Source: an archaeon (GTDB lineage Archaea > EX4484-52 > B79-G9). From it: a stretch of 33,438 bases of DNA. The stretch lies in contig WSZW01000008.1 in assembly GCA_013139905.1 (NCBI GenBank), positions 1 to 33,438 on the forward strand. Direction: 5' to 3'. Position 1 is the first letter of the stretch; the number at the start of each line of letters is the position of its first letter. Positions 2,804-24,142 of this stretch are shown in pieces. The notes below the pieces were generated by a model. It searched no databases. It was not told the origin of the DNA and saw only the letters and a program-made list of their open reading frames with translations. The position numbers and the translations under genes are program-made.

Positions 2804-3409
2804 ATGGAATACTCACATAAATTGGAACTTTTTGCGTATTGTCGTGAATCTGTTGATCTGAAAACAGGAATAGAAATTCAAAAGGAATCTATTCAAAGAT
2901 ATTGTGATGCATATGAGATCACAATTCAAAAATGGTTCATTGATAATGATGCAAGTGCTTACAAGTATAGACCGAACTTTGAAAAAATGTGGAACTCACT
3001 TGATGGATGTGATGGGGTAATTGTAAAAGACCTTTCACGTTTTGGTAGGAGTGATGCAGATATGTTGGCTAAGTTCAATGAAATGAAAGATAGTGGTAAA
3101 CGGCTGATCCTTATCAAAGAAAACATTGATTCATCCACTCCGGAGACTGAATTTTTCTTAAAGATACTGGCATTGTTTGCGGACCGGGAAGCAACTACCA
3201 TAAGAGAGCGGTTGACTGCTGGAAGGGCATATGCAAAGATTCATGGGACAAAGTCAGGTAAACCCATGCACAGACCAGCAAAGAAAATCAACTGGGAGAA
3301 GTTCGATGAAATGAGGGGGAAAGGAATTTCAGTAATTAATATTGCCAAGATGATGGGGATAAGCCAAAGTAAATTATATCATGATATCAAGATAAGACCA
3401 AAGCAATAA
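2804..3409 (+). CDS. Small serine recombinase (resolvase/invertase family) with C-terminal HTH
   Basis: It aligns by eye along the whole length to gamma-delta resolvase. Matches include LFAYCRES (catalytic Ser), VIVKDLSRFGRSDADM, ILALFADREATTIRERLTAGRAYAK and the HTH ISVINIAKMMGISQSKLYHDI. Confidence 0.9.
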   Translation: MEYSHKLELFAYCRESVDLKTGIEIQKESIQRYCDAYEITIQKWFIDNDASAYKYRPNFEKMWNSLDGCDGVIVKDLSRFGRSDADMLAKFNEMKDSGKRLILIKENIDSSTPETEFFLKILALFADREATTIRERLTAGRAYAKIHGTKSGKPMHRPAKKINWEKFDEMRGKGISVINIAKMMGISQSKLYHDIKIRPKQ

Positions 3410-3451
3410 TTCAGAGGTGAATTAAAAGATACATGAAAATGAGGTGGAGAA

Positions 3452-3568
3452 ATGACGGCATATATATGTTACTGTGAAGAATGCCACAAGAAATTTATAA
3501 GTGGATTCTTAAACAATACAATGTGTTTGCCGTGTAGGCTTAAACAGAAGGATGAAAGAAATGAATGA
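3452..3568 (+). CDS. 38-aa zinc-ribbon mini-protein
   Basis: GAGGTGGAGA SD lies upstream. CYCEEC...CLPC cysteine pairs are present. The ORF ends 3 nt before R1. Confidence 0.5.
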   Translation: MTAYICYCEECHKKFISGFLNNTMCLPCRLKQKDERNE

Positions 3569-3571
3569 AAT

Positions 3572-3669
3572 TAGCTCAAGTCACCAGTGGCACTCAGACT
3601 CGCTCTATAGAGCGGCCTGGTGCTACTAAAACACCCGCATGAATGCGGGAGCATGGCTGAGATGATGCA
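3572..3669 (+). repeat. Structured cassette-boundary repeat R1 (5' arm A, partial; core alpha; 3' arm A)
   Basis: TAGCTCAAGTCAC arm. AGTGGCAC-CAG..CTG-GTGC-ACT stem enclosing CGCTC-TATA-GAGCG. CCCGCA-TGAA-TGCGGG hairpin. GCATGGCTGAGATGATGCA arm. Confidence 0.85.
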
Positions 3670-3713
3670 AAAATATAAGTATGACTAAATTAAATTGTGT
3701 AGTGTGATTAATC

Positions 3714-3914
3714 ATGACCAGAAAATACACAACAAAAAAAGACCGTGTGAGAAATATAAACGGAATTGTTTTTAAAGAGTCGCAGGGCAACCTCACAAAG
3801 AAAAAAGCAAGACAAATTGCAGCAACGTGGAATATGAAGGGACGAAAAGCAAGAGTGCTTCCTAGTAAATGGCCCATACAGCACACTTGGTCGGTGTTTA
3901 TAGAAAAGAAGTAA
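3714..3914 (+). CDS. Small basic protein (66 aa)
   Basis: GTGTGAT SD-like motif lies before the ATG. An A/T-rich TATA-like tract follows directly after R1. A T8 run follows the ORF. Confidence 0.6.
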   Translation: MTRKYTTKKDRVRNINGIVFKESQGNLTKKKARQIAATWNMKGRKARVLPSKWPIQHTWSVFIEKK

Positions 3915-3920
3915 TACAAT

Positions 3921-3938
3921 ATTTATTTTATTTTTTTT
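3921..3938 (+). terminator. Oligo-T tract (archaeal terminator-like)
   Basis: ATTTATTTTATTTTTTTT lies immediately after the stop of 3714..3914. Confidence 0.45.
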
Positions 3939-3942
3939 AGTG

Positions 3943-4033
3943 TTGCATTGGTGTTAGCTCAAGTCACGGGCGCCAGCGGCGGACCGCCCAACCCCTGCTT
4001 AGAAAGCAGGGGCATGACTAAGATTGACCCCTG
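3943..4033 (+). repeat. Repeat R2 (5' arm A; GC-rich core delta; 3' arm B)
   Basis: TTGCATTGGTGTTAGCTCAAGTCAC arm. GGGCG..CGCCC stem. CCCCTGCT-TAGAA-AGCAGGGG hairpin. Ends CATGACTAAGATTGACCCCTG. Confidence 0.85.
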
Positions 4034-4110
4034 CTTTTAATATTCTCTTTTTTATAATGGTTGTGTTGTAAACCGACAAGTTTAAGTAAGTTTAAGGCGT
4101 ATTATTAACT

Positions 4111-4245
4111 ATGAAGTGTAAGGCTTTGAAATCAAGTAATGAAGGACGGAGAGTTGAATGCCAAGCAGTTGATACAAACAAATGTAAAAAAACAAGAGGA
4201 CAATTTAATGTAACACAATATTGTTGGTGTATCAAGGAGGAATGA
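4111..4245 (+). CDS. 44-aa Cys-rich mini-protein
   Basis: ORF read by eye (MKCKALKSS...YCWCIKEE). Its stop overlaps the AGGAGG SD of the next gene. Confidence 0.4.
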   Translation: MKCKALKSSNEGRRVECQAVDTNKCKKTRGQFNVTQYCWCIKEE

Positions 4246-4248
4246 ATA

Positions 4249-4422
4249 ATGAAATGTAAAAAAATAGATTGTGATGAATGTGGTATAAACATCACTGATA
4301 GAGTCTACTATGCACAAGGATATACTTATAATTGTTGTTCTCATGGGTGTCTGGCACGGATAATGTTGAATGTTCAGGTATCGACAATTCAAGCAAGATT
4401 TGATTATTTGAATGAGGATTAA
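4249..4422 (+). CDS. 57-aa zinc-binding mini-protein (TRASH/MYM-like Cys spacing)
   Basis: AGGAGG SD lies upstream. CDEC-x19-CC-x3-C pattern (CDECGINITDRVYYAQGYTYNCCSHGC). Confidence 0.5.
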   Translation: MKCKKIDCDECGINITDRVYYAQGYTYNCCSHGCLARIMLNVQVSTIQARFDYLNED

Positions 4423-4425
4423 ACT

Positions 4426-4617
4426 ATGAAAAACTGGATTGATAACTTAGGGTTTGTACTGGTTTTTGTCGTGTATGCAATCGGTGCAGCATATACTGGT
4501 GTTATTTCTTATGGGATTGTGAGATTGGTATTTGGGGGGATGGGTATTTTATCTTTGATTTTTGCCATTCTTTTAATGAAAGATATGTTACTAAAAACCG
4601 AGGGGTCGGTATCTTAG
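4426..4617 (+). CDS. Small two-helix membrane protein (63 aa)
   Basis: GAGGATTAAACT lies before the ATG. Two hydrophobic helices are present. The C-terminal codons (EGSVS*) lie inside the R3 5' arm. Confidence 0.6.
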   Translation: MKNWIDNLGFVLVFVVYAIGAAYTGVISYGIVRLVFGGMGILSLIFAILLMKDMLLKTEGSVS

Positions 4618-4718
4618 AGTAGATGATGAGTCACTTGCACGTCCCTGACTCGTCCATAGGACGGCCAGGGCGAGCAAAAACACCCGGATGAATCCGGGAG
4701 CATGGCTAAGATGATGCA
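4600..4718 (+). repeat. Repeat R3 (5' arm B; core beta; 3' arm A)
   Basis: GAGGGGTCGGTATCTTAGAGTAGATGATGAGTCAC arm. TTGC-CG-CCCTG..CAGGG-CG-GCAA stem enclosing CGTCC-ATA-GGACG. CCCGGA-TGAA-TCCGGG hairpin. GCATGGCTAAGATGATGCA arm. Confidence 0.9.
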
Positions 4719-4860
4719 AAAAGTATTTAATACAATAAACACTGTTTTTATATGAGTGATTTTTTATGTCTAAAATTGTTCATGTAAAAGCACATACAAG
4801 AAAAGATCCAAAAACCGCAATTGCCTGGATAGTCGGATACGATATGAAGAAGGAATAATA

Positions 4861-5343
4861 ATGGATAAGAAAATAGCATTATTGGCAGTGTTTCTGCTTA
4901 TTGGCGTCGCATCAGCGGCGATATTGACAGAATATTTCAGAGATGAGCGAACCGTAGAAGTAACACCGTGGATGTCATTCGATGTAAATAATGACCCACG
5001 AGATACCACATATGGGCTCACTCAACTATATGATTATATCAATATCACTAGTCATAAGAAGTATTCTACGACATGTGAGATTGATACCGAGATATGGTTC
5101 AATGGGGAAGAACTAATCGATACAGAAGGCATCAAAGTCGATTATAGTGTAGAATCTGGAAGCGGTGCACTAATCACTCCATCTGATAATAATAACAATG
5201 GTCTTCCTGAAGCTGCAGTGTTTGGCACCCAGGACGCAGATGGAATATATACCATCAGACGGAATATCAACATCAATGAGGATCTGATTCCAGGAACATA
5301 CCGGATAGTCACTATATTAGTGCCGTATCAGGGAAATTCTTGA
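4861..5343 (+). CDS. Secreted/membrane-anchored protein (160 aa) with N-terminal signal-anchor
   Basis: GAAGGAATAATA lies before the ATG. N-terminus MDKKIALLAVFLLIGVASAAIL. No recognisable family. Confidence 0.7.
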   Translation: MDKKIALLAVFLLIGVASAAILTEYFRDERTVEVTPWMSFDVNNDPRDTTYGLTQLYDYINITSHKKYSTTCEIDTEIWFNGEELIDTEGIKVDYSVESGSGALITPSDNNNNGLPEAAVFGTQDADGIYTIRRNININEDLIPGTYRIVTILVPYQGNS

Positions 5344-5382
5344 GTAGGAAACATAATTATTCGCTATGGCTAAATTGTTACA

Positions 5383-5490
5383 AAGTGCTAGCTCTCAGGT
5401 CACTTGCACAAACCTCACACGTTCTGCGGAACGGCGATGTTGAGCAAAAACACCCATCTAAAGATGGGATGCATGACTAAAATGGTGGAT
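5383..5490 (+). repeat. Repeat R4 (5' arm A, degenerate; core gamma; 3' arm A, degenerate)
   Basis: AAGTGCTAGCTCTCAGGTCAC arm. TTGC..AACCTC..GTTC-TGCG-GAAC..GATGTT..GCAA stem. CCCATC-TAAA-GATGGG hairpin. GCATGACTAAAATGGTGGAT arm. Confidence 0.8.
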
Positions 5491-5649
5491 GAAATGATTA
5501 ATATAAAAGATGAAATGAAACATGTAAAAATTGAAGAAGGACAGATATGGCGTAAACAAGGACCATATGACTGGTTAAAGATTGAAAGAGTTGTTGATCC
5601 TAACTATCCTAGATATGTTGGTGGTGTGTTTTGCAACCATATTATGTAG
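5482..5649 (+). CDS. Small protein (about 55 aa); start uncertain (5473/5482/5494)
   Basis: The track ORF 5404..5649 begins inside R4. The in-frame ATGs at the R4 3' arm are more plausible starts. Confidence 0.5.
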   Translation: MVDEMINIKDEMKHVKIEEGQIWRKQGPYDWLKIERVVDPNYPRYVGGVFCNHIM

Positions 5650-5765
5650 ATATACTAGATGAAATATGTAGTTTCTGTGGTGGGCCGTTGATGACAACCA
5701 CGTTGAATGAAGACACATCCGAATGTATTAATTGTAAAGCCAAATTTGAAATAGAAGATTGCTAA
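5631..5765 (+). CDS. 44-aa zinc-ribbon mini-protein, TTG start
   Basis: CSFC...CINC pairs are present. The frame opens at 5613. TTG 5631 follows a GGTGGTG SD-like motif. It overlaps the preceding ORF by 19 nt. Confidence 0.4.
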   Translation: MQPYYVDILDEICSFCGGPLMTTTLNEDTSECINCKAKFEIEDC

Positions 5766-5767
5766 CG

Positions 5768-5888
5768 TTGCATGGGTGTTGGCTCAAGTCACGGGCGCCG
5801 GTCCGAATGCGAGAATCCCGCATGACAAGCGCCCAACTCCCCACAGCGCTTCGCTAACGTGGGGAGCATGACGACGGAGATGATGCAT
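5768..5888 (+). repeat. Repeat R5 (5' arm A variant; core epsilon; 3' arm A)
   Basis: TTGCATGGGTGTTGGCTCAAGTCAC arm. GGGCGC..GCGCCC stem enclosing ATGCG-AGAATCC-CGCAT. CTCCCCAC..GTGGGGAG hairpin. CATGACGACGGAGATGATGCAT arm. Confidence 0.85.
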
Positions 5889-6074
5889 ATGGCAAGAACA
5901 CAAAGAAGTAAAAAACGTCGGCAGCAAATAAGAGAATTTAGAAAGGAAAATAATATTACGAACTGCAAGCGCTGTGGTGAACCACTTGGAATGACTTCAC
6001 ATAATTTTCTATGTTCAAAGTGTTGGAATATTCAAGAAAACTTCCCTAAATTCGATAGGCCAAAAACAATATAA
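5889..6074 (+). CDS. Basic zinc-ribbon protein (about 61 aa); alternative in-frame ATGs at 5880/5883 inside R5
   Basis: MARTQRSKKRRQQ..., then CKRCGEPLGMTSHNFLCSKC. The track start 5859 lies inside the repeat. Confidence 0.6.
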   Translation: MARTQRSKKRRQQIREFRKENNITNCKRCGEPLGMTSHNFLCSKCWNIQENFPKFDRPKTI

Positions 6075-6082
6075 AAAGCGAG

Positions 6083-6379
6083 GTGAAAATATTGGATGAA
6101 ATATTGTTAATATCTGCATATAATGAAATTATAAAAAAGCAACCACTTTCACGAATGGGTTATGTTGATATGCATAACTTGTATTCAGAAATTAGAAATA
6201 AAAAAGGAATAACATTACAACTATTTAAAGAATGGATGGTTGAATTTTTCAATAAATATAATTTAAATGGATTTGAATTTGCAAGAGCAACGATAGCAAG
6301 AACAGAAGTTAAACGATATTCGTTTATTATTGACAATAATGTATATTATTATATGGTAAAAAGGATGCATAGGTGCTAG
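6083..6379 (+). CDS. Hypothetical protein (about 95-98 aa); TTG 6092 is the likelier start
   Basis: GTG 6083 is part of the GAGGTGA SD. The ORF terminates on the second TAG of the R6 5' arm (..MHRC*). Confidence 0.6.
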   Translation: MKILDEILLISAYNEIIKKQPLSRMGYVDMHNLYSEIRNKKGITLQLFKEWMVEFFNKYNLNGFEFARATIARTEVKRYSFIIDNNVYYYMVKRMHRC

Positions 6380-6474
6380 CTCAAGTCACTTGCACAGCGC
6401 TGACACGATCAGAGGTCGGCCAGCCTGAGCAAAAACTCCCGGATGAATCCGAGAGCATGGATAAGATGATGCAT
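6364..6474 (+). repeat. Repeat R6 (5' arm A; beta-like unique core; 3' arm A)
   Basis: GATGCATAGGTGCTAGCTCAAGTCAC arm. TTGC-CAG-GCTG..CAGC-CTG-GCAA stem with inner CGATC-AGA-GGTCG (U.G wobble). CTCCCGGA-TGAA-TCCGAGAG hairpin. GCATGGATAAGATGATGCAT arm. Confidence 0.9.
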
Positions 6475-6476
6475 AA

Positions 6477-6710
6477 ATGACACGAACAAGAAGAATATAC
6501 AATAATCCAAACTTAAAGAAAACCCCCCGGTCACATATAGACGAGGGTGAATATATTCCAAGAGGCATACCATTTACACGAAGAAGCTGGATATGTATGG
6601 GGATGTGTCGCGGATGTAGAGACCCAGAAAAGGATCCGCGAGCAATTCGTAATAAAATGAAATCGCAATTTAAATTTCAATTGATGTATGAAAAGGAAAT
6701 GATAGTATGA
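6477..6710 (+). CDS. Small basic protein (77 aa)
   Basis: The ATG is 3 nt after the end of R6, with no SD. The protein is Arg/Lys-rich and contains CMGMCRGC. Confidence 0.6.
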   Translation: MTRTRRIYNNPNLKKTPRSHIDEGEYIPRGIPFTRRSWICMGMCRGCRDPEKDPRAIRNKMKSQFKFQLMYEKEMIV

Positions 6711-7013: not shown

Positions 7014-7126
7014 TGCATAGGTGCTAGCTTAAGTCACTTGCGCAAACCTTACTCATTCTGCGGAATGGCAAGGTTGAGCAAAAACTCACGGGCTCAAAGC
7101 CCGAAGCATGAACGGAGATGATGCAT
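7012..7126 (+). repeat. Repeat R7 (5' arm A; core gamma; 3' arm A)
   Basis: GATGCATAGGTGCTAGCTTAAGTCAC arm. TTGC..AACCTT..ATTC-TGCG-GAAT..AAGGTT..GCAA stem. CGGGCT-CAA-AGCCCG hairpin. GCATGAACGGAGATGATGCAT arm. Confidence 0.9.
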
Positions 7127-7128
7127 GA

Positions 7129-7332
7129 ATGAACAATGAAAAATACCACTGTGAAGATTGTGAACAATTTATAAACAAAGGGAAGATGCACGATGAAAAT
7201 GAATCAGAGTTTATGAAAGAAATACATCGTGAATGGGGTGAGTGTAGAGACAGAGCAGAAGTTCATGCCAAAGCACCCATATGTGAAACGTTTGTAAAAC
7301 GAAAGTCATTAAAGGGTTTGTTCTTTAGATAA
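7129..7332 (+). CDS. Small Cys-containing protein (67 aa)
   Basis: The ATG is 3 nt after R7. HCEDCEQF...ECRD...PIC. Confidence 0.6.
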   Translation: MNNEKYHCEDCEQFINKGKMHDENESEFMKEIHREWGECRDRAEVHAKAPICETFVKRKSLKGLFFR

Positions 7333-7341
7333 TGATGACAC

Positions 7342-7456
7342 GATGCATAGGTGCTAGCTCTCAGTCACTTGCAGCAACCTGACACGCTCTACGGAGCGGC
7401 CAGGTGCAGCAAAAACACCCATCTGAAGATGGGATGCATGAACGGAATGAACCCCT
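7342..7456 (+). repeat. Repeat R8 (5' arm A; beta-like unique core; 3' arm B-like)
   Basis: GATGCATAGGTGCTAGCTCTCAGTCAC arm. TTGC-GCA-CCTG..CAGG-TGC-GCAA stem enclosing CGCTC-TACG-GAGCG. CCCATC-TGAA-GATGGG hairpin. GCATGAACGGAATGAACCCCT arm. Confidence 0.85.
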
Positions 7457-7483
7457 TAAATAATAAATTGATAAGGTGATGAA

Positions 7484-8236
7484 ATGATTGATAATATGAC
7501 CCCAACGAAAGAACAGAAGAAAGAATTTATAGTAAAGGCACTTGGAATTGCAGGATTCACAGAAAAGGAAAACTACCAATGGCTGTATACCCAAGAACAC
7601 GGTATGAAAACTGTTGTAGTGAACTTAAACGAATGGCCCGTTAAGCCATATTTCAACGTTAGTGGTAAGAAGATTACAGAGGACGATGAACATGCAACGT
7701 TGAAGAAGGTAAGAACCATCATTAATGAGGCGGAGGGTGGCCAGATGCCTTCGAGGACAGAGGCTGACATTGTTGTGAACGTTGGTACGAAAGATACATC
7801 TGCTGATGATATAGATGCACCAGAGCATAAGAAGTATGCACAGGTCGAGACACCAGACCAGCCAGACGATGCGCCTACACAAACACATAAAACAATGACT
7901 CATGAAGAAGCAATGGCATTACCAAAACAACAGTTTATAGATAGATGCAAAGCATGGTTGGATGAATTCAATGACGGCAACCAACTAAACATAGATGGTC
8001 CCACAAAATGTCCTATTCATGCCTGGGTAATGCATAACCACCAAGCATGTTGCAAAGATTTAGTTGGTGGTATAACAAATTGTGAGATCTGCGGCCAGCC
8101 GATGTGCCCAGATTGTTCAAACCACGGAGTAACTCAACTCTCGAGAGTAACCGGGTACATTCAAGATGTCGCTGGATTTAATGCAGGAAAAAAGCAAGAG
8201 TTGGCCGACCGCAAAAAACACGATACATTTAGGTAA
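7484..8236 (+). CDS. 250-aa protein with C-terminal NrdD-type zinc-ribbon plus glycyl-radical domain; N-terminal 170 aa unknown
   Basis: GGTGA SD lies upstream. The C-terminus CEICGQPMCPDCSNHGVTQLSRVTGYIQDVAGFNAGKKQELADRKKH matches the E. coli NrdD tail RRVCGYLGSPDARPFNAGKQEEVKRRVKH. Confidence 0.75.
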   Translation: MIDNMTPTKEQKKEFIVKALGIAGFTEKENYQWLYTQEHGMKTVVVNLNEWPVKPYFNVSGKKITEDDEHATLKKVRTIINEAEGGQMPSRTEADIVVNVGTKDTSADDIDAPEHKKYAQVETPDQPDDAPTQTHKTMTHEEAMALPKQQFIDRCKAWLDEFNDGNQLNIDGPTKCPIHAWVMHNHQACCKDLVGGITNCEICGQPMCPDCSNHGVTQLSRVTGYIQDVAGFNAGKKQELADRKKHDTFR

Positions 8237-8277: not shown

Positions 8278-8379
8278 AGCCGTAGATTAGTCACTAGTGG
8301 CACTCAGACTCGCTCAGTAGAGCGGCCTGGTGCTACTAAAACACCCGCATGAATGCGGGAGCATGGATAAGATGATGCA
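8278..8379 (+). repeat. Repeat R9 (5' arm B, truncated; core alpha; 3' arm A)
   Basis: GAGCCGTAGATTAGTCAC arm. The core is nearly identical to R1 and R14. GCATGGATAAGATGATGCA arm. Confidence 0.9.
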
Positions 8380-8424
8380 AAAATATTTATTTAATAAAAA
8401 CAAACAATAAAGATGTGATATATC

Positions 8425-8639: not shown

Positions 8640-8750
8640 TTGCATAGGAGTTGGCTCAAGTCAGGGGCGCCGGTCCGAATGCGAGAATCCCGCATGACAA
8701 GCGCCCAACTCTCCCTTAGAAAGGGAGAGCATGACTAAGATTGACCCCTG
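8640..8750 (+). repeat. Repeat R10 (5' arm A variant; core epsilon; 3' arm B)
   Basis: TTGCATAGGAGTTGGCTCAAGTCA arm. The GGGCGC..GCGCCC stem is identical to R5. CTCTCCCT-TAGAA-AGGGAGAG hairpin. CATGACTAAGATTGACCCCTG arm. Confidence 0.9.
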
Positions 8751-8760
8751 TCTTTTTTTA
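8751..8760 (+). terminator. Oligo-T tract after R10
   Basis: TCTTTTTTTA lies directly after the 3' arm B. Confidence 0.35.
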
Positions 8761-8809
8761 AATAGAAATCCTTAAATAGAATAACTTACTTACTTAGTAT
8801 GGTGATATT

Positions 8810-9224: not shown

Positions 9225-9380
9225 ATGACAGTTGTAGTGTGTGATAAAAAGGACTGTGCTCACTATGAGAATGGCATCTGTGAAATGGAACAGATATACT
9301 TTGAATTGATAAATGATGTACTTACGTGTGTAGATGATACTGAGTTTATTGAGGGGTCTGATCACAGAGCCGATGAATAG
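9225..9380 (+). CDS. 51-aa Cys-containing mini-protein
   Basis: GAGAGG lies before the ATG. VCDKKDCAHYENGIC. The last 9 codons (EGSDHRADE*) lie inside the R11 5' arm B. Confidence 0.5.
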   Translation: MTVVVCDKKDCAHYENGICEMEQIYFELINDVLTCVDDTEFIEGSDHRADE

Positions 9381-9469
9381 TCACTTGCGCGTCCCTGACT
9401 CGTCCACAGGACGGCCAGGGCGAGCAAAAACACCCGGATGAATCCGGGAGCATGGATAAGAAGACACAT
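9351..9469 (+). repeat. Repeat R11 (5' arm B; core beta; 3' arm A, degenerate)
   Basis: GAGGGGTCTGATCACAGAGCCGATGAATAGTCAC arm. The core is almost identical to R3 and R15. GCATGGATAAGAAGACACAT arm. Confidence 0.9.
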
Positions 9470-9489
9470 GAAAAGAGGCGAATAAATAA

Positions 9490-10211: not shown

Positions 10212-10302
10212 GATGCATAGGTGCTAGCTATAAGTCAAGGGCGCCAGCGGCGGACCGCCCAACTCCCTGCTAGAAGCAGGGAGCATGACTAAGTTTGACC
10301 CA
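10212..10302 (+). repeat. Repeat R13 (5' arm A; core delta; 3' arm B)
   Basis: GATGCATAGGTGCTAGCTATAAGTCAA arm. The GGGCG..CGCCC stem is identical to R2. CTCCCTGC-TAGAA-GCAGGGAG hairpin. CATGACTAAGTTTGACCCA arm. Confidence 0.9.
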
Positions 10303-10331
10303 TTGAATGAATAAATAAAGAGAGTGAATAT

Positions 10332-10837: not shown

Positions 10838-10931
10838 ATAGTCACTAGTGGCCATCAGACTCGCTCTATAGAGCGGCCTGGTGCTACTAAAACTCCCGCA
10901 TGAATGCGGGAGCATGACTAAAATGATGCAT
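10812..10931 (+). repeat. Repeat R14 (5' arm B; core alpha; 3' arm A)
   Basis: GAGGGGTCGGATCACAGAGCCGATAGATAGTCAC arm. Core as in R1 and R9. GCATGACTAAAATGATGCAT arm. Confidence 0.9.
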
Positions 10932-10984
10932 GAAAAGGAAGTGGGATATATGAAAGTAATTTATGTTGAAAGGTGAGATAGTAA

Positions 10985-11428: not shown

Positions 11429-11539
11429 ATGCATAGGTGCTAGCACGAAGTCACTTGCGCGTCCCTGACTCGTCCACAGGACGGCCAGGGCGAGCAAAAA
11501 CTCCCGGCTGAAGCAGGGAGCATGGTTAAACTGATGCAT
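11429..11539 (+). repeat. Repeat R15 (5' arm A; core beta; hybrid P3; 3' arm A)
   Basis: ATGCATAGGTGCTAGCACGAAGTCAC arm. Beta stem identical to R11. CTCCCGGC-TGAA-GCAGGGAG hairpin. GCATGGTTAAACTGATGCAT arm. Confidence 0.9.
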
Positions 11540-11714
11540 AAAAGCAGTTGCACGAAACAAAGCACTGTTTGCAAATGCTATATGGTCCGTATCAAATCCT
11601 TTGTTGGTGGGATATAACTATTATAATGGAATGATTGAACAATCTATCATGTTCGCTGTTTTTACATTGGTGGCAGGGTATGGGGTATATAATTTAAAAA
11701 TTAAAGCGGAGTGA
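11535..11714 (+). pseudogene. N-terminally truncated paralogue of the 15084..15320 membrane protein, abutting R15
   Basis: The frame is open from 11535 with no ATG/GTG/TTG until mid-ORF. NAIWSVSNPLLVGYNYYNGMIEQSIMFAVFTLVAGYGVYNLKIK aligns to NVLWLISNPAMSVYNYNINEFEMAGMFGVYSMIAVYGVYNLKLK. Confidence 0.5.
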
Positions 11715-14472: not shown

Positions 14473-14943
14473 GTGATTTTGTCATTAAATACGATCATAA
14501 ATAACTCATTGAACGCGAGGAAAACCACAAAACTACCTATTAATGAGCCACAATATGAATTAATAACTTTAATTCGTAATGAATTTCAAAAAGACTTTAT
14601 TAAAAAATTATATCCTAATCCTATTTGGACCAATAGAGTATACTGGAATGTCATAGGTAGAATCCAAGACGAACCTGAAGATTTCCAACTTGATAATATC
14701 ATCAAAGGTATGGATCAATATCTCGAAGACAATAACATGTGTGTAACTCAAAGAGACTTACTAAAGTTCATACGTGAATCTATAATCACACACCAAATCG
14801 AAGGCAAGACAAAGATAGAGGATGTATCTGCACATGCAACAGAGAACGGAGTTGCAGTAGACCGATTCAACGAAGCAATCAAGCACATGAAAGCAGACGG
14901 AAGTATTTTCGAACCGGATGAAGGATTTTATAGGTGTATATAG
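14473..14943 (+). CDS. Hypothetical protein (156 aa), GTG start
   Basis: GGGGGG lies before GTG 14473. No recognisable motifs. Confidence 0.55.
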   Translation: MILSLNTIINNSLNARKTTKLPINEPQYELITLIRNEFQKDFIKKLYPNPIWTNRVYWNVIGRIQDEPEDFQLDNIIKGMDQYLEDNNMCVTQRDLLKFIRESIITHQIEGKTKIEDVSAHATENGVAVDRFNEAIKHMKADGSIFEPDEGFYRCI

Positions 14944-17359: not shown

Positions 17360-17483
17360 ATTCAAACCGAACTTGAATTAGTACGAGTTCACTGTATTGA
17401 GTTAAAAAAAGTTATAATGTTTCAAATTGAAGATTATAAAACCCACCAATAATAATTTATATTGTAAACCCAAATATACCACA

Positions 17484-20400
17484 ATGAAAATTAAAACAAA
17501 TGTGTTTTTATTTTTAGTGGTATGTGTTTTATTTTTACCAATCACATCCGCTGAAAATCCATATCTTAATCCAATGGTAACTACCCATGAACTTGTAGCG
17601 GAAAAGACATTCAACGGATTTACAACATCTTGGTATTATAGCCCTGGGCTAACCAACCAAGAATACATAATTGCTATCCAGAACTTGGAGGATGTGAACC
17701 GTGAAACGGATATAAGCTCACTCTTTTCAGAAACAAACTTTGGAATTGACGACCTTTCTAACATACACTTCTCAGAATATAAGAATGTTTCATACACTTA
17801 CCTCGTAAACCATTACTACGAAGTGGAGCATTCTGAATGGAACGAGGCTAATCAAACCTGGAATAATTGGACTGAGCAGGTTTATTCCCACAACACAACC
17901 GAGACTGCCGTAAAGCCAGATTGGAAAGCCTGTAAAATGAACACGTTTTCTCAGGGTGCAAATGACCGGAAAGAAGATTACGGTGATATGCTAATCCCTA
18001 AATTTACTTCAAAAGATAAAGGTGACGGAACCATTGACGGCACAAAGATATTCCGGCTTACTTTTGATACCCCGATAATCAACAGTGGTGCGGGTTACGG
18101 TAGCAGTGGTCGTGTGGCATTAACATTGGATAACATCGAGCACTGCCCCTATTGGAACACATCATTTTCAAGTAGAATTCCAATTACAATTACAACAAAC
18201 GGCACGTCTACTCCATCAAATAATCAAGTCCGACTTAACATTTCTTATGAATCAGAAATGCAGGCAGACTTTGATGATATAAGATTCACAAATTCATCCG
18301 ATGGTGAAATAGCATACTGGATTGAATCAAAAGCCAATTTATCTTATGCTAATGTTTGGGTCAATTTATCTGATGTAATTACCGACCCCGGGAGTGATAC
18401 AATATGGATGTATTATGGCAATCCTGAATTAAGTGATGGCAGTGATGAAGGCAATACATTTATAGAAAGTTTTACAGGTAGTTCCACAGGATGGACTGAG
18501 GTTGATGATGGATCAGACATAGCGTTTGCAAATGACAGGCTAGAATTTACGAATCTACCTAGAAATGTTGACGGGTATGTATATAAATCATTTGCAAGAG
18601 CAAGTGATAATTTAACACTTGAATATGCATGGAATATTACTTCAAATAATGCTGGGCAAATTATATTTTTACCATCAATATCAAATAGTGTAGATGATTT
18701 ACGAAACCAACAAAATCATTATAGTACAGGACGCATTGTTAATGCTAATATAGCTTCCACTATAGAAATATCAGATTCGGGTTATGTAGGGAATAGTGTT
18801 GCTTTTACACCAAATACTACATATTATAATGTAGTGACACGAGTCGGTAATACAATTACCACAAAAATATACACTGATGCTGCAAAGACAAACTTATTGG
18901 ACACAAGCACAATAACTCAAGCAACAATTCCATCATTATCATATTTATTTCTGATGTCATCTTATAATTCTGGTGATCCCAATCTTATATCAGGATGGAT
19001 TGATAATATGATTGTTAGGGAGTATATTGCTGATGAACCAACATTAACATATGGATCATCACAGTATTACACCGATTCTCTCCACTATAACACAACTTCT
19101 CCATACAACCACACAATCGAATCAGATGGTACAATAACAGCAAACCGTAGTATAATTTCTGCAGATGATACTAATGATACGGCGTTAAGCACAGGTACTT
19201 CATACCTCATAATCAATGTTTTTGATAATGAAGCAAACATAGTTCGCAACTTCACATTTACTGGTGACAACTTAGATTGGTATCAAGCTGCTAATTTATC
19301 AGGAAGTTACGACTTAAAGAATAGTACAGGAATAATTGAGACACAAACAAACGGTAATTTCACCACGAATTTAACCGCTGGAACATATTGGATTGAAAAA
19401 ACAGGCATTTCAATTTCATTGGTATCATTCACACCATCACCACTTTACACAAATTATAGTGGTGAATCAACAATAAGTTATATAGTTGAATCGTACTACC
19501 CGTTAAATCTTTCAAGTCTTGCATTTTTACATGGTGTAAATTATACCATTACAGGTGACATGCATAACTATATTAGTGTTCCATATAATGATATATCAGA
19601 TGGTTATTATAAAGCACCTGATCGGAATGTAACCCCATATTTATCATGGGAATTCAACGATACTATTTCTGGTGGGAATGTGTGGCAATGGGGTGGAGGA
19701 GATAACAATTCATCGTGGATTACAAATACTCCAATTAATGCTACTCATACATGGATTAATATCACAAGGATGGTACCACAATCGCTTTCAAATGCATATT
19801 TCATTGACGATGAAGCTTTATATAATGCACCAATGACCGGTTTTGAAATTAATAGACAACAAGGATTGATTTTAAAAGGATGGGATCTTGAGCAGATTAG
19901 AAACCGAAATAATAATTATTTCGTAAGTTTATTTTTTGATACTTCCTTTGAAAGTTCAATGCCAGCTTATCCCGTTGAAATTGGGTATTGTAACGATAGT
20001 TATGATCCTGCTGTGGATGATATAGACACTTGCACAGACTGTATAAAATTTGGTGAATGGAATGGAACTCGCTGGGTTAACCATTCGTGGGATCCAAGTG
20101 TTAATGCGTCTTATGCTTCTCCACTTGTAATAAACGCTTCACATTTTACAGACCCCTCACCAGACGACATAGCTTATATCTGGCTGCGATCTTATGCACA
20201 TTCAAGTAAATCATTTGTACTTAATGCAACGGATTATGATCCTGGATTAACTAATATCACGTTTGCTGATACACAAAGTATGTGGACATACAATGAACTC
20301 AATGGCGTTACCACTCCAGTGGCATACACGCCATCGTATTTTGCAATGTTCACAAGGGACTATGAAGAATTCCTCCATCATCTTTACATTGCTGATAATC

Positions 20401-22403
20401 AAGGGCTGTGGGGTCATTCAGAAATATTTAATGAGTCCATTGGTATTTCTTCTGTTCCTGTTTCGGCTGTAAGTTTTGAACATTTTAATGTTACATGTAA
20501 TGAAGATTACATTGAAGATACATTGATGGATGCAACATATGATGATGGTTCTATTTTGGTTAATATCTTCTGCCCCGCTGATCCAGATGGTGGCACAGTC
20601 TCACACAATTTGACATTGCATTATGCGTTAAATCAATCACTCGTTGCTGTGATTAATGACACCTTTACAACTACAGGCAACGAGTATGTTGACATAAACT
20701 TTACAACAACACCACATTATTCAACAAGTGACTTTTATACCCTTAGATGTGTAAGCACTGATGATGAAAATGATGTTGCCACTAAGTGGCTTATATCAGA
20801 CTTTACACTAGATGCAGATGGCAACCAGGGATGGGTAGTAGATGATGCTTTGTTGTTCTGGGGAATGAACGATATCCCAACACTCTATGCAACTGTAGCA
20901 AACGATTCATTGATTTCGTACAATGCAGACAATGATATTTACACAATGCATATTCCTTTTTTCAAGTCAAAATCAAACGACACGTTTTATTTCAATGAGA
21001 CTGTCCATCTTGAATCGTTGAACAATGAAAATGTTTCATATTTTAGACACAGCGGTGAAACAATATTTGACTATGCAACAATCAACGCATGGAATACCAC
21101 CACAGACACAGCCGCACTAATTACCGATGAATACCGTGGATATGTATATTCACATTTTCATGTATGTGGAAATATAACAAACAGTGATATTTCATACTTA
21201 GGTAGTGATTTATATCGAAACGAAGGATTAAACTTTATTGACAATCCTCATGATTATTTAATATTTAACACCACCCTTTCACACAATGCAGAAGGTCTAA
21301 TCATGGAATATTGTTCGAACATGAATATTTCACAATGCACAATAATTGATAATGTGAATGTTGGTCTTGGAATTTATTTCAGCAACGACACCATAGTTTC
21401 CAACAATGTTATAGATTCAAATGGTGGCCGTGGAATCACCATGTATGAAGCAAACAAAAATATAATCAGTTACAACGATATCATAAACAGTGGGATACAT
21501 GGAGTACATTACTGGTCAAATTCACAGAACAATTCCTGTACAGGAAATGACATATCTGAAAGTGCATTGTATGATTATTATCTGTCTTCATCAAGCCTTG
21601 GTAACTACATCATTGACCCGGCATCTGCCACGGATCGAATAAGAGTCACAAGTACATCAAGTGTCAATATAGAGAACACAGACAATGCGGCATTTTCAGA
21701 AGACAGCTTAAATACTTCATATGCATATCTTACTAATTTTTCGATGTATGTATCTGGGGCGTCCCAGACATTTGACATAACCCAATATGATATGACTATT
21801 GTACCAAGCAATGATAATCTTTCAATACAGAATTTTGAATGGGGCAACACAATACAATTCAATGCAGAATCGAGCATTGGAGTGAATCAAACTTGGTTTA
21901 ATATTACTAGTGTACGATGGAAAAATGAACATATTTCAATCTTCGTGGATGAATTACCATACAATGTATCTTATGCAGATGATAACGGAACACTGACATA
22001 TAATTATTCGGTTAGTATTGGAGATAACTTTTTTGAGTTTGTACTTACAATACCACCATCACCGGTTCCAGTAAGTTTATATATATTCATGGGTGTGTTG
22101 CTGTTTGTATTCTGTGGGGCATCATTTATACTGGCAGGGATTCCAAGCATATTCACATCAATATTAAGCATAATGTTTTCGTTTATTATGTCTAAGATCG
22201 CAGTCAATGGATCATTAGTTCAAAACATTGGTGGTATTAGCAGCACTGGTACAGTTATCCAGGGCGTAACCAGAATTGAAATTCCAGCACTATCTTACAT
22301 TTTGATATTTGTTGGAATATTTATGACAGTTATCTTGGTTATTCAAGTACTGCGTGAAATTAAATTTAGAGAATCCCAAGATATAATTGAACTGGATTTG
22401 TGA
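17484..22403 (+). CDS. Giant (about 1640 aa) secreted N-glycoprotein: DUF2341/LamG-like region, right-handed beta-helix (PbH1) repeats, C-terminal 3-helix membrane anchor; likely adhesin or receptor-binding spike
   Basis: Signal peptide MKIKTNVFLFLVVCVLFLPITSA. DUF2341-like DFDDIRFTNSSDGEIAYWIE..ANVWVNL..IWMYYGN. PbH1-like NNVIDSNGGRGITMYEANKNIISYNDIINSGIHGVHY. Very many N-x-S/T sequons. The track TTG start 17427 is less likely. Confidence 0.85.
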   Translation: MKIKTNVFLFLVVCVLFLPITSAENPYLNPMVTTHELVAEKTFNGFTTSWYYSPGLTNQEYIIAIQNLEDVNRETDISSLFSETNFGIDDLSNIHFSEYKNVSYTYLVNHYYEVEHSEWNEANQTWNNWTEQVYSHNTTETAVKPDWKACKMNTFSQGANDRKEDYGDMLIPKFTSKDKGDGTIDGTKIFRLTFDTPIINSGAGYGSSGRVALTLDNIEHCPYWNTSFSSRIPITITTNGTSTPSNNQVRLNISYESEMQADFDDIRFTNSSDGEIAYWIESKANLSYANVWVNLSDVITDPGSDTIWMYYGNPELSDGSDEGNTFIESFTGSSTGWTEVDDGSDIAFANDRLEFTNLPRNVDGYVYKSFARASDNLTLEYAWNITSNNAGQIIFLPSISNSVDDLRNQQNHYSTGRIVNANIASTIEISDSGYVGNSVAFTPNTTYYNVVTRVGNTITTKIYTDAAKTNLLDTSTITQATIPSLSYLFLMSSYNSGDPNLISGWIDNMIVREYIADEPTLTYGSSQYYTDSLHYNTTSPYNHTIESDGTITANRSIISADDTNDTALSTGTSYLIINVFDNEANIVRNFTFTGDNLDWYQAANLSGSYDLKNSTGIIETQTNGNFTTNLTAGTYWIEKTGISISLVSFTPSPLYTNYSGESTISYIVESYYPLNLSSLAFLHGVNYTITGDMHNYISVPYNDISDGYYKAPDRNVTPYLSWEFNDTISGGNVWQWGGGDNNSSWITNTPINATHTWINITRMVPQSLSNAYFIDDEALYNAPMTGFEINRQQGLILKGWDLEQIRNRNNNYFVSLFFDTSFESSMPAYPVEIGYCNDSYDPAVDDIDTCTDCIKFGEWNGTRWVNHSWDPSVNASYASPLVINASHFTDPSPDDIAYIWLRSYAHSSKSFVLNATDYDPGLTNITFADTQSMWTYNELNGVTTPVAYTPSYFAMFTRDYEEFLHHLYIADNQGLWGHSEIFNESIGISSVPVSAVSFEHFNVTCNEDYIEDTLMDATYDDGSILVNIFCPADPDGGTVSHNLTLHYALNQSLVAVINDTFTTTGNEYVDINFTTTPHYSTSDFYTLRCVSTDDENDVATKWLISDFTLDADGNQGWVVDDALLFWGMNDIPTLYATVANDSLISYNADNDIYTMHIPFFKSKSNDTFYFNETVHLESLNNENVSYFRHSGETIFDYATINAWNTTTDTAALITDEYRGYVYSHFHVCGNITNSDISYLGSDLYRNEGLNFIDNPHDYLIFNTTLSHNAEGLIMEYCSNMNISQCTIIDNVNVGLGIYFSNDTIVSNNVIDSNGGRGITMYEANKNIISYNDIINSGIHGVHYWSNSQNNSCTGNDISESALYDYYLSSSSLGNYIIDPASATDRIRVTSTSSVNIENTDNAAFSEDSLNTSYAYLTNFSMYVSGASQTFDITQYDMTIVPSNDNLSIQNFEWGNTIQFNAESSIGVNQTWFNITSVRWKNEHISIFVDELPYNVSYADDNGTLTYNYSVSIGDNFFEFVLTIPPSPVPVSLYIFMGVLLFVFCGASFILAGIPSIFTSILSIMFSFIMSKIAVNGSLVQNIGGISSTGTVIQGVTRIEIPALSYILIFVGIFMTVILVIQVLREIKFRESQDIIELDL

Positions 22404-22412
22404 GGATTAAAA

Positions 22413-22763
22413 ATGTCAGTTTACATACCAATTGGATTATTTATCTGTCTTGTATCTGTGATGGTTATCCTTGTGTTTGCAGGGATAAAGACCACTGGAA
22501 TTCTATCAATATTTTCATCTCTTTTGAGCATAATGTTGGCCTTTATAAATTCAAAGATTGTAGTTAATGGTACTTTAGTTCAGAATATCGGTGGCATTGA
22601 TGGATATGACAATATTATACAAGGTGTCACACCTATAGAAATACCTGCGCTATCATATATTTTTATGTTTATAGGTTTATTCATGGTTGTGGTGTTGGCT
22701 GTCCAAGTATTAAGAGAAATCAAATTTAGAGAATCTCAAGATACAATCGAAATTGATTTATAG
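22413..22763 (+). CDS. Stand-alone copy of the giant protein's C-terminal 3-helix membrane-anchor module (116 aa)
   Basis: TGAGGATT SD lies upstream. About two-thirds of residues are identical to the last 116 aa of 17484..22403 (..NGTLVQNIGGI..IQGVTPIEIPALSYI..VQVLREIKFRESQDTIEIDL). Confidence 0.8.
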   Translation: MSVYIPIGLFICLVSVMVILVFAGIKTTGILSIFSSLLSIMLAFINSKIVVNGTLVQNIGGIDGYDNIIQGVTPIEIPALSYIFMFIGLFMVVVLAVQVLREIKFRESQDTIEIDL

Positions 22764-23050: not shown

Positions 23051-23140
23051 GTAACACATAAATACTTTTAAATTAAATATACTCAACATGATAGAATTTG
23101 TATTTTGATCTATCTTTGATTTAGAGGAGGTGAAAAACAC

Positions 23141-23734
23141 ATGGTAAACGCTAAAATGGTTGTAGTTATTACTGTTGCTGCACTTGTTATTCTGGTTCTG
23201 CTTGCCGTCGCTCCTATGATTGGCAGTACCATTGATGATGTATCGAATATCCAAGACAATGTACAAGCAACTGGAACTCTAACATTTACTGGCGCATCTG
23301 CTGTAAATAACATTGTGAATATTAGTACCGAAACGTACACATTTACTAACGGGACTGGCGGTGCATTTAATGTTGATGTTGGTTCTGATGCCGGAAATGC
23401 AACATATTCTAATAGTCAGTTGGTTGCTGAGATAACTGCCAACAGCACACTGGTTACAGCTGTAGATAATACGGATGATTCTCTGACTGTAACATCTGTA
23501 CTATCCGGTACTGCTGGTAACGCATACGGTACGACTGATAACCTCACGAACGCCGCATGGGGTGCAACAACCTTAACTGGCGGAATAGATGGATCTGATT
23601 GGAACAGCAATGCAAACTCAGATTTGAATAGTCCTGCACAGTCATGGATAACATTTGTTGGTTTGATTGTTCTTGCGTTCTTGGCTGTTATAATCGGTCT
23701 TGTAATCAGAGCATTCAAAGGCATGGGTGAATGA
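23141..23734 (+). CDS. Two-helix virion protein paralogue with a T/S/N/G/A-rich central insertion (197 aa)
   Basis: GGAGGTGA SD lies upstream. The N-terminal helix MVNAKMVVVITVAALVILVLLAVAPMIGSTI and C-terminal helix SWITFVGLIVLAFLAVIIGLVIRAFKGMGE nearly match the next gene. Confidence 0.8.
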   Translation: MVNAKMVVVITVAALVILVLLAVAPMIGSTIDDVSNIQDNVQATGTLTFTGASAVNNIVNISTETYTFTNGTGGAFNVDVGSDAGNATYSNSQLVAEITANSTLVTAVDNTDDSLTVTSVLSGTAGNAYGTTDNLTNAAWGATTLTGGIDGSDWNSNANSDLNSPAQSWITFVGLIVLAFLAVIIGLVIRAFKGMGE

Positions 23735-23751
23735 TACCAAATTTCACCCAA

Positions 23752-23763
23752 TTTTCTTTTTTT
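23752..23763 (+). terminator. Oligo-T tract
   Basis: TTTTCTTTTTTT lies 18 nt after the stop of 23141..23734. Confidence 0.4.
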
Positions 23764-23764
23764 C

Positions 23765-23780
23765 AAAAACCTTTAAATAG
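23765..23780 (+). promoter_or_regulatory. Canonical-looking archaeal BRE/TATA (AAAAACCTTTAAATAG)
   Basis: It lies upstream of 23855..24124, which has a leader with a GGAGGTGA SD. Confidence 0.5.
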
Positions 23781-23854
23781 TTTTAATTTCAATTATAGAT
23801 TATGATAGAAACCCATACTTTATCTATCTCCATTTTACGGGAGGTGAAAAACAC

Positions 23855-24124
23855 ATGGTAAACGCTAAAACTGTAGTAAGCTTAACCATCGCCGCTGTTG
23901 TTATTATTGTTCTTTTGGCTGTTGCTCCTATGATTGGATCAACTATTGAAGAAACTTATACCGTAACCGACACTTCAACTGACGGATGGAATAGAGCAAA
24001 CAACACAGATCTGACATCTCCTGCAGACTCATGGATAACTTTTGTAGGCTTGATTGTCCTGGCATTCCTTGCAGTGATCATAGGAATTGTCATCAAGGCA
24101 TTCGCCGGAATGGGTGAGAAATAA
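23855..24124 (+). CDS. Putative major capsid/virion protein: 89 aa, two hydrophobic helices (as in spindle-shaped/pleomorphic archaeal virus MCPs)
   Basis: Strong GGAGGTGA SD. The size and two-helix topology match fusellovirus/His1-type MCPs. It is a tandem paralogue of 23141... Confidence 0.7.
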   Translation: MVNAKTVVSLTIAAVVIIVLLAVAPMIGSTIEETYTVTDTSTDGWNRANNTDLTSPADSWITFVGLIVLAFLAVIIGIVIKAFAGMGEK

Positions 24125-24142
24125 CCACTTCTGTATTGACAG

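Follow-up and report, generated by a model that had tools for sequence, protein, structure and literature searches.

A stand-alone NrdD-type glycyl radical domain encoded by an archaeal mobile element: a candidate spare part for class III ribonucleotide reductase

Introduction

Glycyl radical enzymes (GREs) are irreversibly destroyed by oxygen, and a small gene on an archaeal mobile element raises the question whether one of them, the class III (anaerobic) ribonucleotide reductase (RNR) NrdD, may be served by a replaceable radical-bearing part that is encoded apart from the enzyme itself. The gene occupies positions 7484-8236 of a 33,438-nt stretch of archaeal DNA (GenBank assembly GCA_013139905.1, contig WSZW01000008.1, positions 1 to 33,438 of the forward strand), hereafter referred to as the window. 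A first-pass annotation, made by a model from the letters alone, had proposed that the last residues of its product reproduce the zinc ribbon and glycyl radical tail of NrdD, that the catalytic barrel is absent, and that a tail of this kind carried by a mobile element could, by analogy with GrcA/YfiD, rescue or hijack deoxynucleoside triphosphate (dNTP) synthesis in the host.

The one repair strategy known for such enzymes is the GrcA/YfiD spare part of pyruvate formate-lyase (PFL). GrcA rescues cleaved and full-length inactive PFL alike, and phage T4 encodes a PFL spare part of its own, Y06I (PMC13450708, PMC12338860). A review of June 2026 names the formate lyases as the sole GRE class with identified spare parts and leaves the matter undetermined elsewhere (PMC13450708). 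The first-pass annotation had been aware of no NrdD counterpart of GrcA; in keeping with this, we found no description of a stand-alone NrdD glycyl radical domain (GRD), or of an NrdD spare part, in the open-access literature, in which an ANME-1 virome paper names "NrdD" among viral auxiliary genes without giving detail. Here we report that the window gene ends in an NrdD-type GRD and that it belongs to a large and apparently undescribed family of NrdD tails in methanogens and their viruses.

Results

A complete NrdD-type glycyl radical domain without a catalytic barrel

The open reading frame (ORF) at 7484-8236 of the plus strand is complete, begins with ATG and encodes 250 residues plus a stop codon; its product ends in ...CEICGQPMCPDCSNHGVTQLSRVTGYIQDVAGFNAGKKQELADRKKHDTFR, the last 50 or so residues reading exactly as the first-pass annotation had quoted them. 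The Pfam model PF13597 (NRDD) matched this protein with 43.2 bits (E=2.9e-11; gathering cutoff 26.2), aligning aa 197-246 with profile positions 508-562 of 562 only, and TIGR02487 matched with E=1.9e-12 through its last 41 positions only (541-581 of 581), at a score of 46.6 against an equivalog cutoff of 326. The significant match to the NrdD C-terminus by which the annotation had proposed to be judged was thus obtained, and the confinement of the match to the end of the profile agrees with its claim that the barrel is missing: neither the ten-stranded alpha/beta barrel nor the active-site Cys finger loop of NrdD was found in the 250-residue protein with Pfam or TIGR02487. The NrdD families of PHROG aligned with it through the tail only. 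NRDD was the only family matched in a Pfam scan at E<=10, in which Gly_radical (PF01228) was unmatched, and an NCBIfam scan returned only NrdD models plus one chance hit.

Residues 182-246 of the protein aligned with residues 677-738 of the chain in PDB entry 8p23, the NrdD of P. copri, a structure in which the GRD, a highly mobile rigid body, begins after residue 676 (PMC11226230). Since the match starts where the mobile GRD starts, the window protein holds the entire GRD and none of the barrel. The C-terminal signature of NrdD, RVxGY followed by an FN/WN-xGK-xQE-xxxR helix, is present in the form SRVTGY...FNAGKKQELADR, with invariant columns shared with at least nine full-length archaeal NrdDs and with 8p23. 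All six residues of SRVTGY are invariant between the stand-alone domain and host NrdD tails; V94, N98, K101, Q103, E104, D107 and R108 (C-domain numbering) are likewise invariant and common to full-length NrdDs. Ahead of the Gly loop stands a four-Cys zinc ribbon, a predicted metal site, in the form CEIC-x4-CPDC with variant spacing. An AlphaFold2 (AF2) model of the C-domain (predicted local distance difference test score, pLDDT, 68) sets the Gly between two strands, E82-84 and E91-93, with a long helix after them; a Gly between two short strands and then a helix is the usual Gly-finger arrangement of GREs. By tblastn, motif regular expression and Pfam searches of the larger ORFs, the window contained no second NrdD-like sequence, no nrdD barrel and no nrdG. 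As judged by homology, ORF 7484-8236 thus ends in a complete NrdD-type GRD.

A family of stand-alone NrdD tails under purifying selection

A family profile built from eight members was scored exhaustively against 1.84 billion cluster representatives and gave 943 matches at E<=1e-3, the best 150 of which were used for counts of length, motif and spacing. Among these 150, 115 representatives were no longer than 210 aa, and 102 of the 115 begin with Met; the family median was 119.5 aa, and family proteins or domains span 85-180 aa. Of the 115 short representatives, 113 have the glycine motif [ST]R[IVL][TV]G[YF], so that the Gly of RVTGY, whose conservation among homologues the annotation had named as a second point on which it could fail, is indeed conserved. 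Full-length NrdDs aligned with only the last ~40 positions of the family profile. Profile-profile comparison (hhalign) of the family with nine Methanosarcinales-type NrdDs gave a probability of 99.6% (E=8e-25) over the last 56-62 residues only; a helical N-subdomain of ~60 residues, which is conserved among stand-alone members, had no NrdD counterpart in this comparison. The annotation's reading of the protein as an NrdD-type tail on a mobile element is supported, and the profile match is significant with Pfam, TIGR02487 and hhalign alike.

The family pattern can be written C-x12-13-C-x10-C-x2-C-x4-CP-x-C-x2-H, followed by LSRVTGY and K-x-QE-x3-R, and the window protein has all invariant columns of our alignments A1 and A6; the Cys6His set (C41, C54, C65, C68, C73, C76 and H79 of the C-domain) is invariant in A1. 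Spacing between the zinc knuckles was 4 in 58 of 100 Met-initiated short members with the Gly motif and 10 in 21 of the 25 full-length NrdD matches examined, the remaining 4 having no CxxC pair. The zinc ribbon that had been likened to that of NrdD is hence present, but its site is a different one (CxxC-x4-CxxC instead of CxxC-x10-CxxC, with six Cys and a His in all). Since this Cys6His signature is unlike NrdD, family members are not fragments of nrdD genes; and since the window gene has both the family subdomain and the family Cys pattern, it descends from the stand-alone family and not directly from nrdD. Some members bear a further N-terminal zinc ribbon. In the source databases the family is annotated as "oxidoreductase", as "hypothetical protein" or, via the Pfam hit, as "anaerobic ribonucleoside-triphosphate reductase".

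The stand-alone family is under purifying selection. When the window gene was compared with its four closest homologues and the fused gene of locus L004, the ratio of nonsynonymous to synonymous substitution rates (dN/dS) was 0.09-0.14 for the C-domain, at a dS that had already reached 1.4-2.0, and 0.17-0.24 for the N-terminal module.

Distribution in archaeal genomes

A survey of one genome per GTDB species was evaluated at its best 80 loci. Short ORFs (75-183 aa) made up the best 30 of these, carried mostly by Methanococcoides, ANME-2c (anaerobic methanotrophic archaea), other Methanosarcinales, Methanospirillum, Methanoregula, other Methanomicrobiales and Ca. Alkanophaga; cultured Methanococcoides carriers include M. 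seepicolus LLY and M. alaskense DSM 17273, and a few of the short-ORF loci lie on small contigs binned as bacteria. The other 50 loci match through the tail only, and all 15 that were checked proved to be full-length NrdDs of 650-1250 aa (from Methanoperedens, Methanosarcinales, Methanocellales and Methanothrix), with tails 62-64% identical to that of the window protein. The window C-domain is ~54% identical to chromosomal proteins of Methanococcoides. NrdDs of the host lineage are 750-800 aa long with an intact tail, and in Methanosarcinaceae (Methanococcoides, Methanomethylovorans, Methanohalophilus) a radical S-adenosylmethionine (radical SAM) nrdG directly follows nrdD.

The neighbourhoods of several short tail genes are conserved between species. 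Three Methanococcoides species (L062, L063 and L064) share the order MarC, tail gene, EB_dh, radical SAM; two Methanomicrobiales genera (L079 3105-6073 and L081 2865-6076) share the order deoxyhypusine synthase, PyrF, tail gene, CbiZ, with an OB-fold protein next in L079; and in Methanohalophilus levihalophilus the tail gene lies on a 700-kb contig. Several short tail genes are thus plainly chromosomal, and the domain is not peculiar to mobile elements; the annotation had treated it as a mobile-element domain, which is correct for its location in the window but does not extend to these syntenic homologues in Methanococcoides, Methanohalophilus and Methanomicrobiales. A second Methanococcoides paralogue (L143 6791-8381) is divergent from a peroxiredoxin gene (AhpC/1-Cys Prx) and lies near an FMN reductase and a MarR regulator; the peroxiredoxin neighbour of this copy fits a role in oxygen stress.

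Distribution in viruses and a naturally split NrdD

In IMG/VR, ~21 contigs carry short versions of 100-146 aa. The closest to the window are those of L008 (117 aa, 77% identical) and L009 (119 aa, 66%), both being tails without the N-terminal module. In the GenBank phage collection the sole match was the full-length NrdD of Methanobacterium virus PhiF1, with no stand-alone tail in any deposited isolate. Within 5-6 kb of the short viral or genomic tails no NrdG-like gene was found, save at the mini-tail of a split NrdD in one viral contig, L049.

This contig (IMGVR_UViG_3300031111_000001, 114.6 kb) encodes, at 3018-6102, a naturally split class III RNR, in the order barrel, HU-like gene, small ORF, NrdG-like radical SAM gene and a separate 54-aa Gly-tail ORF. 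The barrel protein (613 aa) matches positions 1-534 of 562 of the NRDD profile and stops just past the zinc ribbon, and the 54-aa ORF bears ARIVGY...WNAGKKQELADR. By analogy, this arrangement bears on the feasibility of action in trans by a detached tail. Two other viral contigs, L058 (5959-6192) and L060 (5896-6126), encode mini NrdD tails of 76-77 aa (YSR[IV]VGY...WNEGK.QE..R) in which the zinc ribbon is absent; neither has an NrdD within 6 kb, and one lies beside a phage tail-collar protein. These may represent a second, simpler class of stand-alone tails.

Downstream of the stand-alone tail gene of L008 (6470-7144) lies a protein with a NUMOD3 motif, which is linked to homing endonucleases, a hint that such enzymes may have aided the spread of tail genes.

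Fusion to an adaptor-like N-terminal module

Homologue searches across 5.8 billion proteins delimited three parts in the window protein, namely an N-terminal module, an acidic Pro-rich linker and the family domain (Table 1). The annotation had regarded the N-terminal 170 residues as unrelated to the tail; this describes aa 1-100, which form a separate module, while aa 136-175 belong to the domain of the stand-alone family. By BLASTP the module is 52-59% identical to the N-termini of proteins P0014, P0012 and P0005 (129-149 aa aligned), and in related archaeal elements it is joined to RecT/Bet, to an AAA_24/IstB-like ATPase, to a Gp3-like recombination directionality factor or to unknown domains. 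It had no fold match in the PDB and no PHROG match at E<=0.1, and a Pfam scan of the whole protein placed no family over it. Copies lie at 7484-7783 of the window, 10001-10309 of L005, 9989-10294 of L007, 1941-2249 of L009 and 10001-10312 of L004, one per locus within the stretches fetched. The module looks like an adaptor or targeting domain common to related elements.

The linker is probably disordered, and DNA alignments to relatives break inside it. In L005 and L009 a distance of 4-8 kb lies between the gene for the tail (130 or 119 aa) and the one that carries the module, which is there part of RecT or of another protein; the fused form is present in the window, in L004 and in P0001-P0003. 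An assembly chimera was considered and rejected, given three independent homologous fusions, including homologues at 91% and 76% identity from independent assemblies. From these comparisons the window gene is best described as a derived fusion of a stand-alone domain to an adaptor-like N-terminal module.

A structured intergenic repeat on both sides of the gene

A ~103-nt repeat flanks the gene with one copy on either side (Table 1), and to this extent the annotation's description of it as a cassette was partly borne out. Most small genes between 3.5 and 12 kb of the window are separated by such a repeat; a covariance model (R1) identified 14 copies in the window, 17 in L004 and more in L005-L007, with 37 of 37 copies on the gene strand. 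The stand-alone tail gene of L005 likewise has a copy after it (18570-18670). The repeat is predicted to form two hairpins with invariant single-stranded AGUCAC, AAAAC and GCAUG; in an alignment of 26 copies, pairing extends to 95% of cells and compensatory changes are seen at 14 of the 20 pairs, a level of covariation attained in none of 500 shuffles, with slid controls reaching 29-42% pairing. After at least two copies, an A/T-rich TATA-like stretch precedes the start of the next ORF, and the A/T-rich and AGGTGA stretches that follow the upstream copy may be read as a putative promoter and Shine-Dalgarno sequence. An Rfam search of the repeat gave nothing at gathering score or E<=5, and an exact-pattern scan of IMG/VR gave six singletons, which is chance level.

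As to its role, the repeat could be a cassette for terminator-promoter shuffling, a site of RNA processing or a ribozyme. An integron attC reading was considered and set aside in view of the uniform orientation of the 37 copies, the RNA-like covariation and the lack of an integron integrase, the only recombinase being a small serine recombinase. The cassette reading recalls the "promoter-early stem-loop" (PeSL) elements of T4-type phages, which are mobile regulatory cassettes and reshuffle small early genes: in both cases such genes lie between repeats of a structured intergenic element, within a hyperplastic region whose gene content varies among relatives. The window repeat differs in being archaeal, ~103 nt long and composed of two covarying hairpins with invariant AGUCAC, AAAAC and GCAUG.

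The element that carries the gene

Related elements encode MCM, RecT, an ERCC4 nuclease and a prohead protease, and some are classed as viral in IMG/VR. Within the window, no RNR, no head-tail hallmark genes and, by tRNA scan, no tRNAs were recognised. Nearest cellular homologues and the names on related proteins make it likely that the host is a member of the Methanosarcinales. The small serine recombinase stands at the start of the array of repeat-separated small genes in the window and again in L004 (8943-9536). Positions 22137-22759 and 23105-24130 of the window hold paired direct repeats of 100-145 nt (families D4, D5, D8 and D12) with 72-75% identity, spaced 360-714 nt apart; these are probably small genes that arose by tandem duplication, downstream of the 1658-aa DUF2341/beta-helix protein.

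Table 1. Features of the 250-residue protein, of its surroundings and of the carrying element in the 33,438-nt window.
Feature	Position (nt)	Residues	Strand	Evidence or detail
N-terminal module	7484..7783	aa 1-100	+	alpha-beta4-alpha fold, AF2 pLDDT 78.5
Acidic Pro-rich linker	7784..7888	aa 101-135	+	composition; pLDDT <50 at residues 99-105 of N-module model
Family-specific helical N-subdomain	7889..8008	aa 136-175	+	AF2 helices H5-9, H13-28 of C-domain model
Cys6-His cluster	8009..8125	Cys176, Cys189, Cys200, Cys203, Cys208, Cys211, His214	+	ribbon CxxC-x4-CPxC
Glycyl radical motif SRVTGY	8141..8158	aa 220-225	+	Gly224 codon 8153-8155
C-terminal helix, NrdD-conserved N..K.QE..DR	8168..8221	aa 229-246	+	AF2 helix H94-111
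Upstream repeat copy	7362-7465		+	covariance model R1, 93.4 bits
A/T-rich TATA-like stretch ahead of the ORF	7456-7468
Shine-Dalgarno-like AGGTGA ahead of the ORF	7474-7479
Downstream repeat copy, best-scoring	8288-8390		+	R1, 111.2 bits
Other repeat copies, first half	3578-3680, 3961-4046, 4628-4729, 5397-5500, 5786-5898, 6383-6484, 7031-7136		+
Other repeat copies, second half	8658-8769, 9378-9479, 10232-10318, 10839-10941, 11448-11549		+
Small serine recombinase (resolvase/invertase)	2804-3409		+	Pfam 98.6 bits
DUF927 primase-helicase with Cch helix-turn-helix	12266-14137
Weak archaeal MCM winged-helix match	14473-14943
1658-aa DUF2341/beta-helix protein	17427-22403
STAND/DnaA-like ATPase	26588-27484

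Discussion

Proposed role of the stand-alone domain

We propose, by analogy with GrcA/YfiD, that the C-terminal 115 residues of the window protein are an autonomous class III RNR GRD that acts in trans, a reading to which we give an even chance of being correct. In the mechanism that we infer, host NrdG would dock on the zinc module and the SRVTGY loop and, using S-adenosylmethionine, would set the radical on Gly224; the activated domain would then reach with its Gly finger into the barrel of a host NrdD that lacks a working GRD of its own, this having been cleaved by oxygen, left unradicalised or displaced. dNTP synthesis would in this way be restored or raised, to the benefit of an element that has no RNR and needs a supply for replication. 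Bearing on the feasibility of such action in trans are the mobility of the NrdD GRD (PMC11226230), the rescue of PFL by GrcA, the existence of Y06I in T4 and the split enzyme of L049. What the data show is the identity of the domain, the lack of a barrel, the size, conservation, purifying selection and cellular and viral occurrence of the family, and nrdD-nrdG in the host lineage; activation, docking, rescue and the adaptor role are proposed. The gene itself derives from a cellular small-protein family of methanogens and methanotrophs, joined in this lineage through a flexible linker to the N-terminal module, which may serve as an adaptor that brings the protein to a shared partner in viral replication or recombination; the fusion suggests, as speculation, a tether to a partner that is common to recombination proteins. 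When MetSV infects Methanosarcina, host nrdD and nrdG are co-induced with viral replication genes including the polymerase, with nrdH in a closely associated expression cluster (PMC9694453). The viral motive would accordingly be dNTP supply, as the element encodes no RNR itself.

Several observations weigh against this proposal. The hosts are strict anaerobes, in which oxygen damage may be rare, and an intact host NrdD already has its own GRD, which would need to be displaced. The zinc module has a shorter ribbon than that of NrdD and two extra Cys plus a His, and its fit to NrdG and to the barrel is hence not guaranteed. Finally, a fold search with the isolated C-domain model, itself of moderate quality (pLDDT 68), found no significant PDB match; a Gly finger alone is not a globular fold.

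Alternative explanations

The likeliest of the alternatives, though itself improbable, is that the free domain is a decoy or regulator of the activase, which would bind NrdG, whether or not it is itself radicalised, and titrate, buffer or redirect NrdD activation without ever docking into NrdD, host dNTP synthesis being throttled or timed to the infection cycle as a result. The zinc module and the SRVTGY loop, the likeliest activase-recognition parts, are the most conserved parts of the domain, and with no NrdG gene at the tail-bearing viral loci host NrdG is the obvious partner. However, conservation beyond the Gly loop, towards the C-terminus, is as strong as in the loop itself, and the residues concerned are invariant in all full-length NrdD tails; cutting the host dNTP supply would harm an element without an RNR of its own; infection by a related archaeal virus is accompanied by induction of host nrdDG; and the copies in chromosomal housekeeping contexts are a poor fit for a self-inhibitor. 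Ranked next, and unlikely, is a zinc-binding protein that was recruited to another task, such as the binding of nucleic acids, a regulatory function or the donation of a radical to an unrelated partner, with the NrdD-like tail kept for a different interaction and the N-terminal module providing the real function of the window version. Such a protein could account for the helical N-subdomain and the two Cys and the His that NrdD lacks, for the N-terminal zinc ribbon added in some members and for the module's occurrence on recombination proteins, but the invariant residues are exactly those of catalytic NrdD tails, the radical Gly included, and a non-radical role needs none of these.

Placed below this, and also doubtful, is the possibility that the domain is the obligate radical subunit of a two-piece enzyme, the partner barrel being a tail-less NrdD or another NrdD-like protein, and not a repair part. 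In its favour, a naturally split NrdD with barrel, nrdG and a 54-aa tail exists in L049, and the tail gene of Methanomicrobiales belongs to a syntenic core next to pyrF, with no full-length NrdD from this group among the best 80 genome hits; this non-appearance covers those 80 hits only, however, the window has no barrel gene, and other Methanosarcinaceae genomes of the same genera as tail carriers encode an NrdD with an intact tail and an adjacent nrdG. RNR genes are classic targets of homing endonucleases, and a non-functional 3' fragment of nrdD, moved by recombination or by a homing endonuclease with the conserved nrdD end as its target, would be in keeping with the NUMOD3-motif protein after the L008 tail gene and with a window region that is a shuffling hot spot bounded by repeats. 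We nevertheless consider a pseudogene or remnant essentially excluded by the data on selection and conservation: dN/dS is ~0.1 at saturated dS, more than 100 diverged short cluster representatives have intact ORFs with an invariant Gly, the family signature is unlike NrdD, chromosomal synteny is kept across species and the fused form occurs in three independent assemblies.

Implications

The wider form of the spare-part proposal is offered tentatively, as possible rather than probable: the domain would be the first spare part beyond PFL, from an NrdG-activated family that sustains class III RNR in methanogens and ANME archaea, that has been captured by their viruses and that is here tethered through an adaptor to viral replication or recombination machinery. 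More than 100 clusters of diverged small proteins, from methanogens, ANME archaea and their viruses, make up the family, which provides a concrete candidate for a class III RNR spare part. If the proposal is true, the spare-part principle reaches DNA-precursor synthesis and helps to account for the oxygen tolerance of methanogens; viruses would have a new kind of auxiliary gene, which gives a cofactor-bearing fragment instead of an enzyme; studies of NrdG would gain a minimal substrate; and host dNTP synthesis would be physically coupled to viral DNA synthesis. Cultured carriers (Methanococcoides alaskense DSM 17273, M. seepicolus and Methanohalophilus levihalophilus) make the proposal directly testable.

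Comparison with known systems

In relation to the GRD of NrdD itself (8p23 and Methanosarcinales enzymes), the homology of the window protein is colinear and runs from the first zinc knuckle to the end of the helix after the SRVTGY loop. Unlike NrdD, the window protein has no ten-stranded barrel, no Cys finger loop and no ATP-cone; its ribbon loop is 6 residues shorter, and two upstream Cys plus a His and the helical N-subdomain are added. The split NrdD of L049 resembles it in that the Gly-radical tail is a separate small ORF, but L049 clusters its barrel (613 aa, zinc ribbon retained) with nrdG and has a 54-aa tail without a zinc module, whereas the window has neither barrel nor nrdG.

The closest parallels are GrcA/YfiD and Y06I. 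As in those proteins, a small polypeptide combines a non-homologous N-terminal part with a complete C-terminal GRD, is encoded apart from the barrel and is found in cells as well as in a virus that infects them, and, by analogy, activation by the activase would be followed by insertion into the damaged parent enzyme (PMC13450708). In contrast to GrcA/YfiD, the domain in the window is homologous to NrdD (PF13597) and not to PFL, belongs to archaea and archaeal viruses, and comes with a Cys6His zinc module that is absent in GrcA and with a fused adaptor-like module of 100 aa. With a complete GRD, no barrel and a gene separate from that of the parent enzyme, the window protein has the architecture of a spare part, and by this analogy it may be the first such part for any GRE besides PFL.

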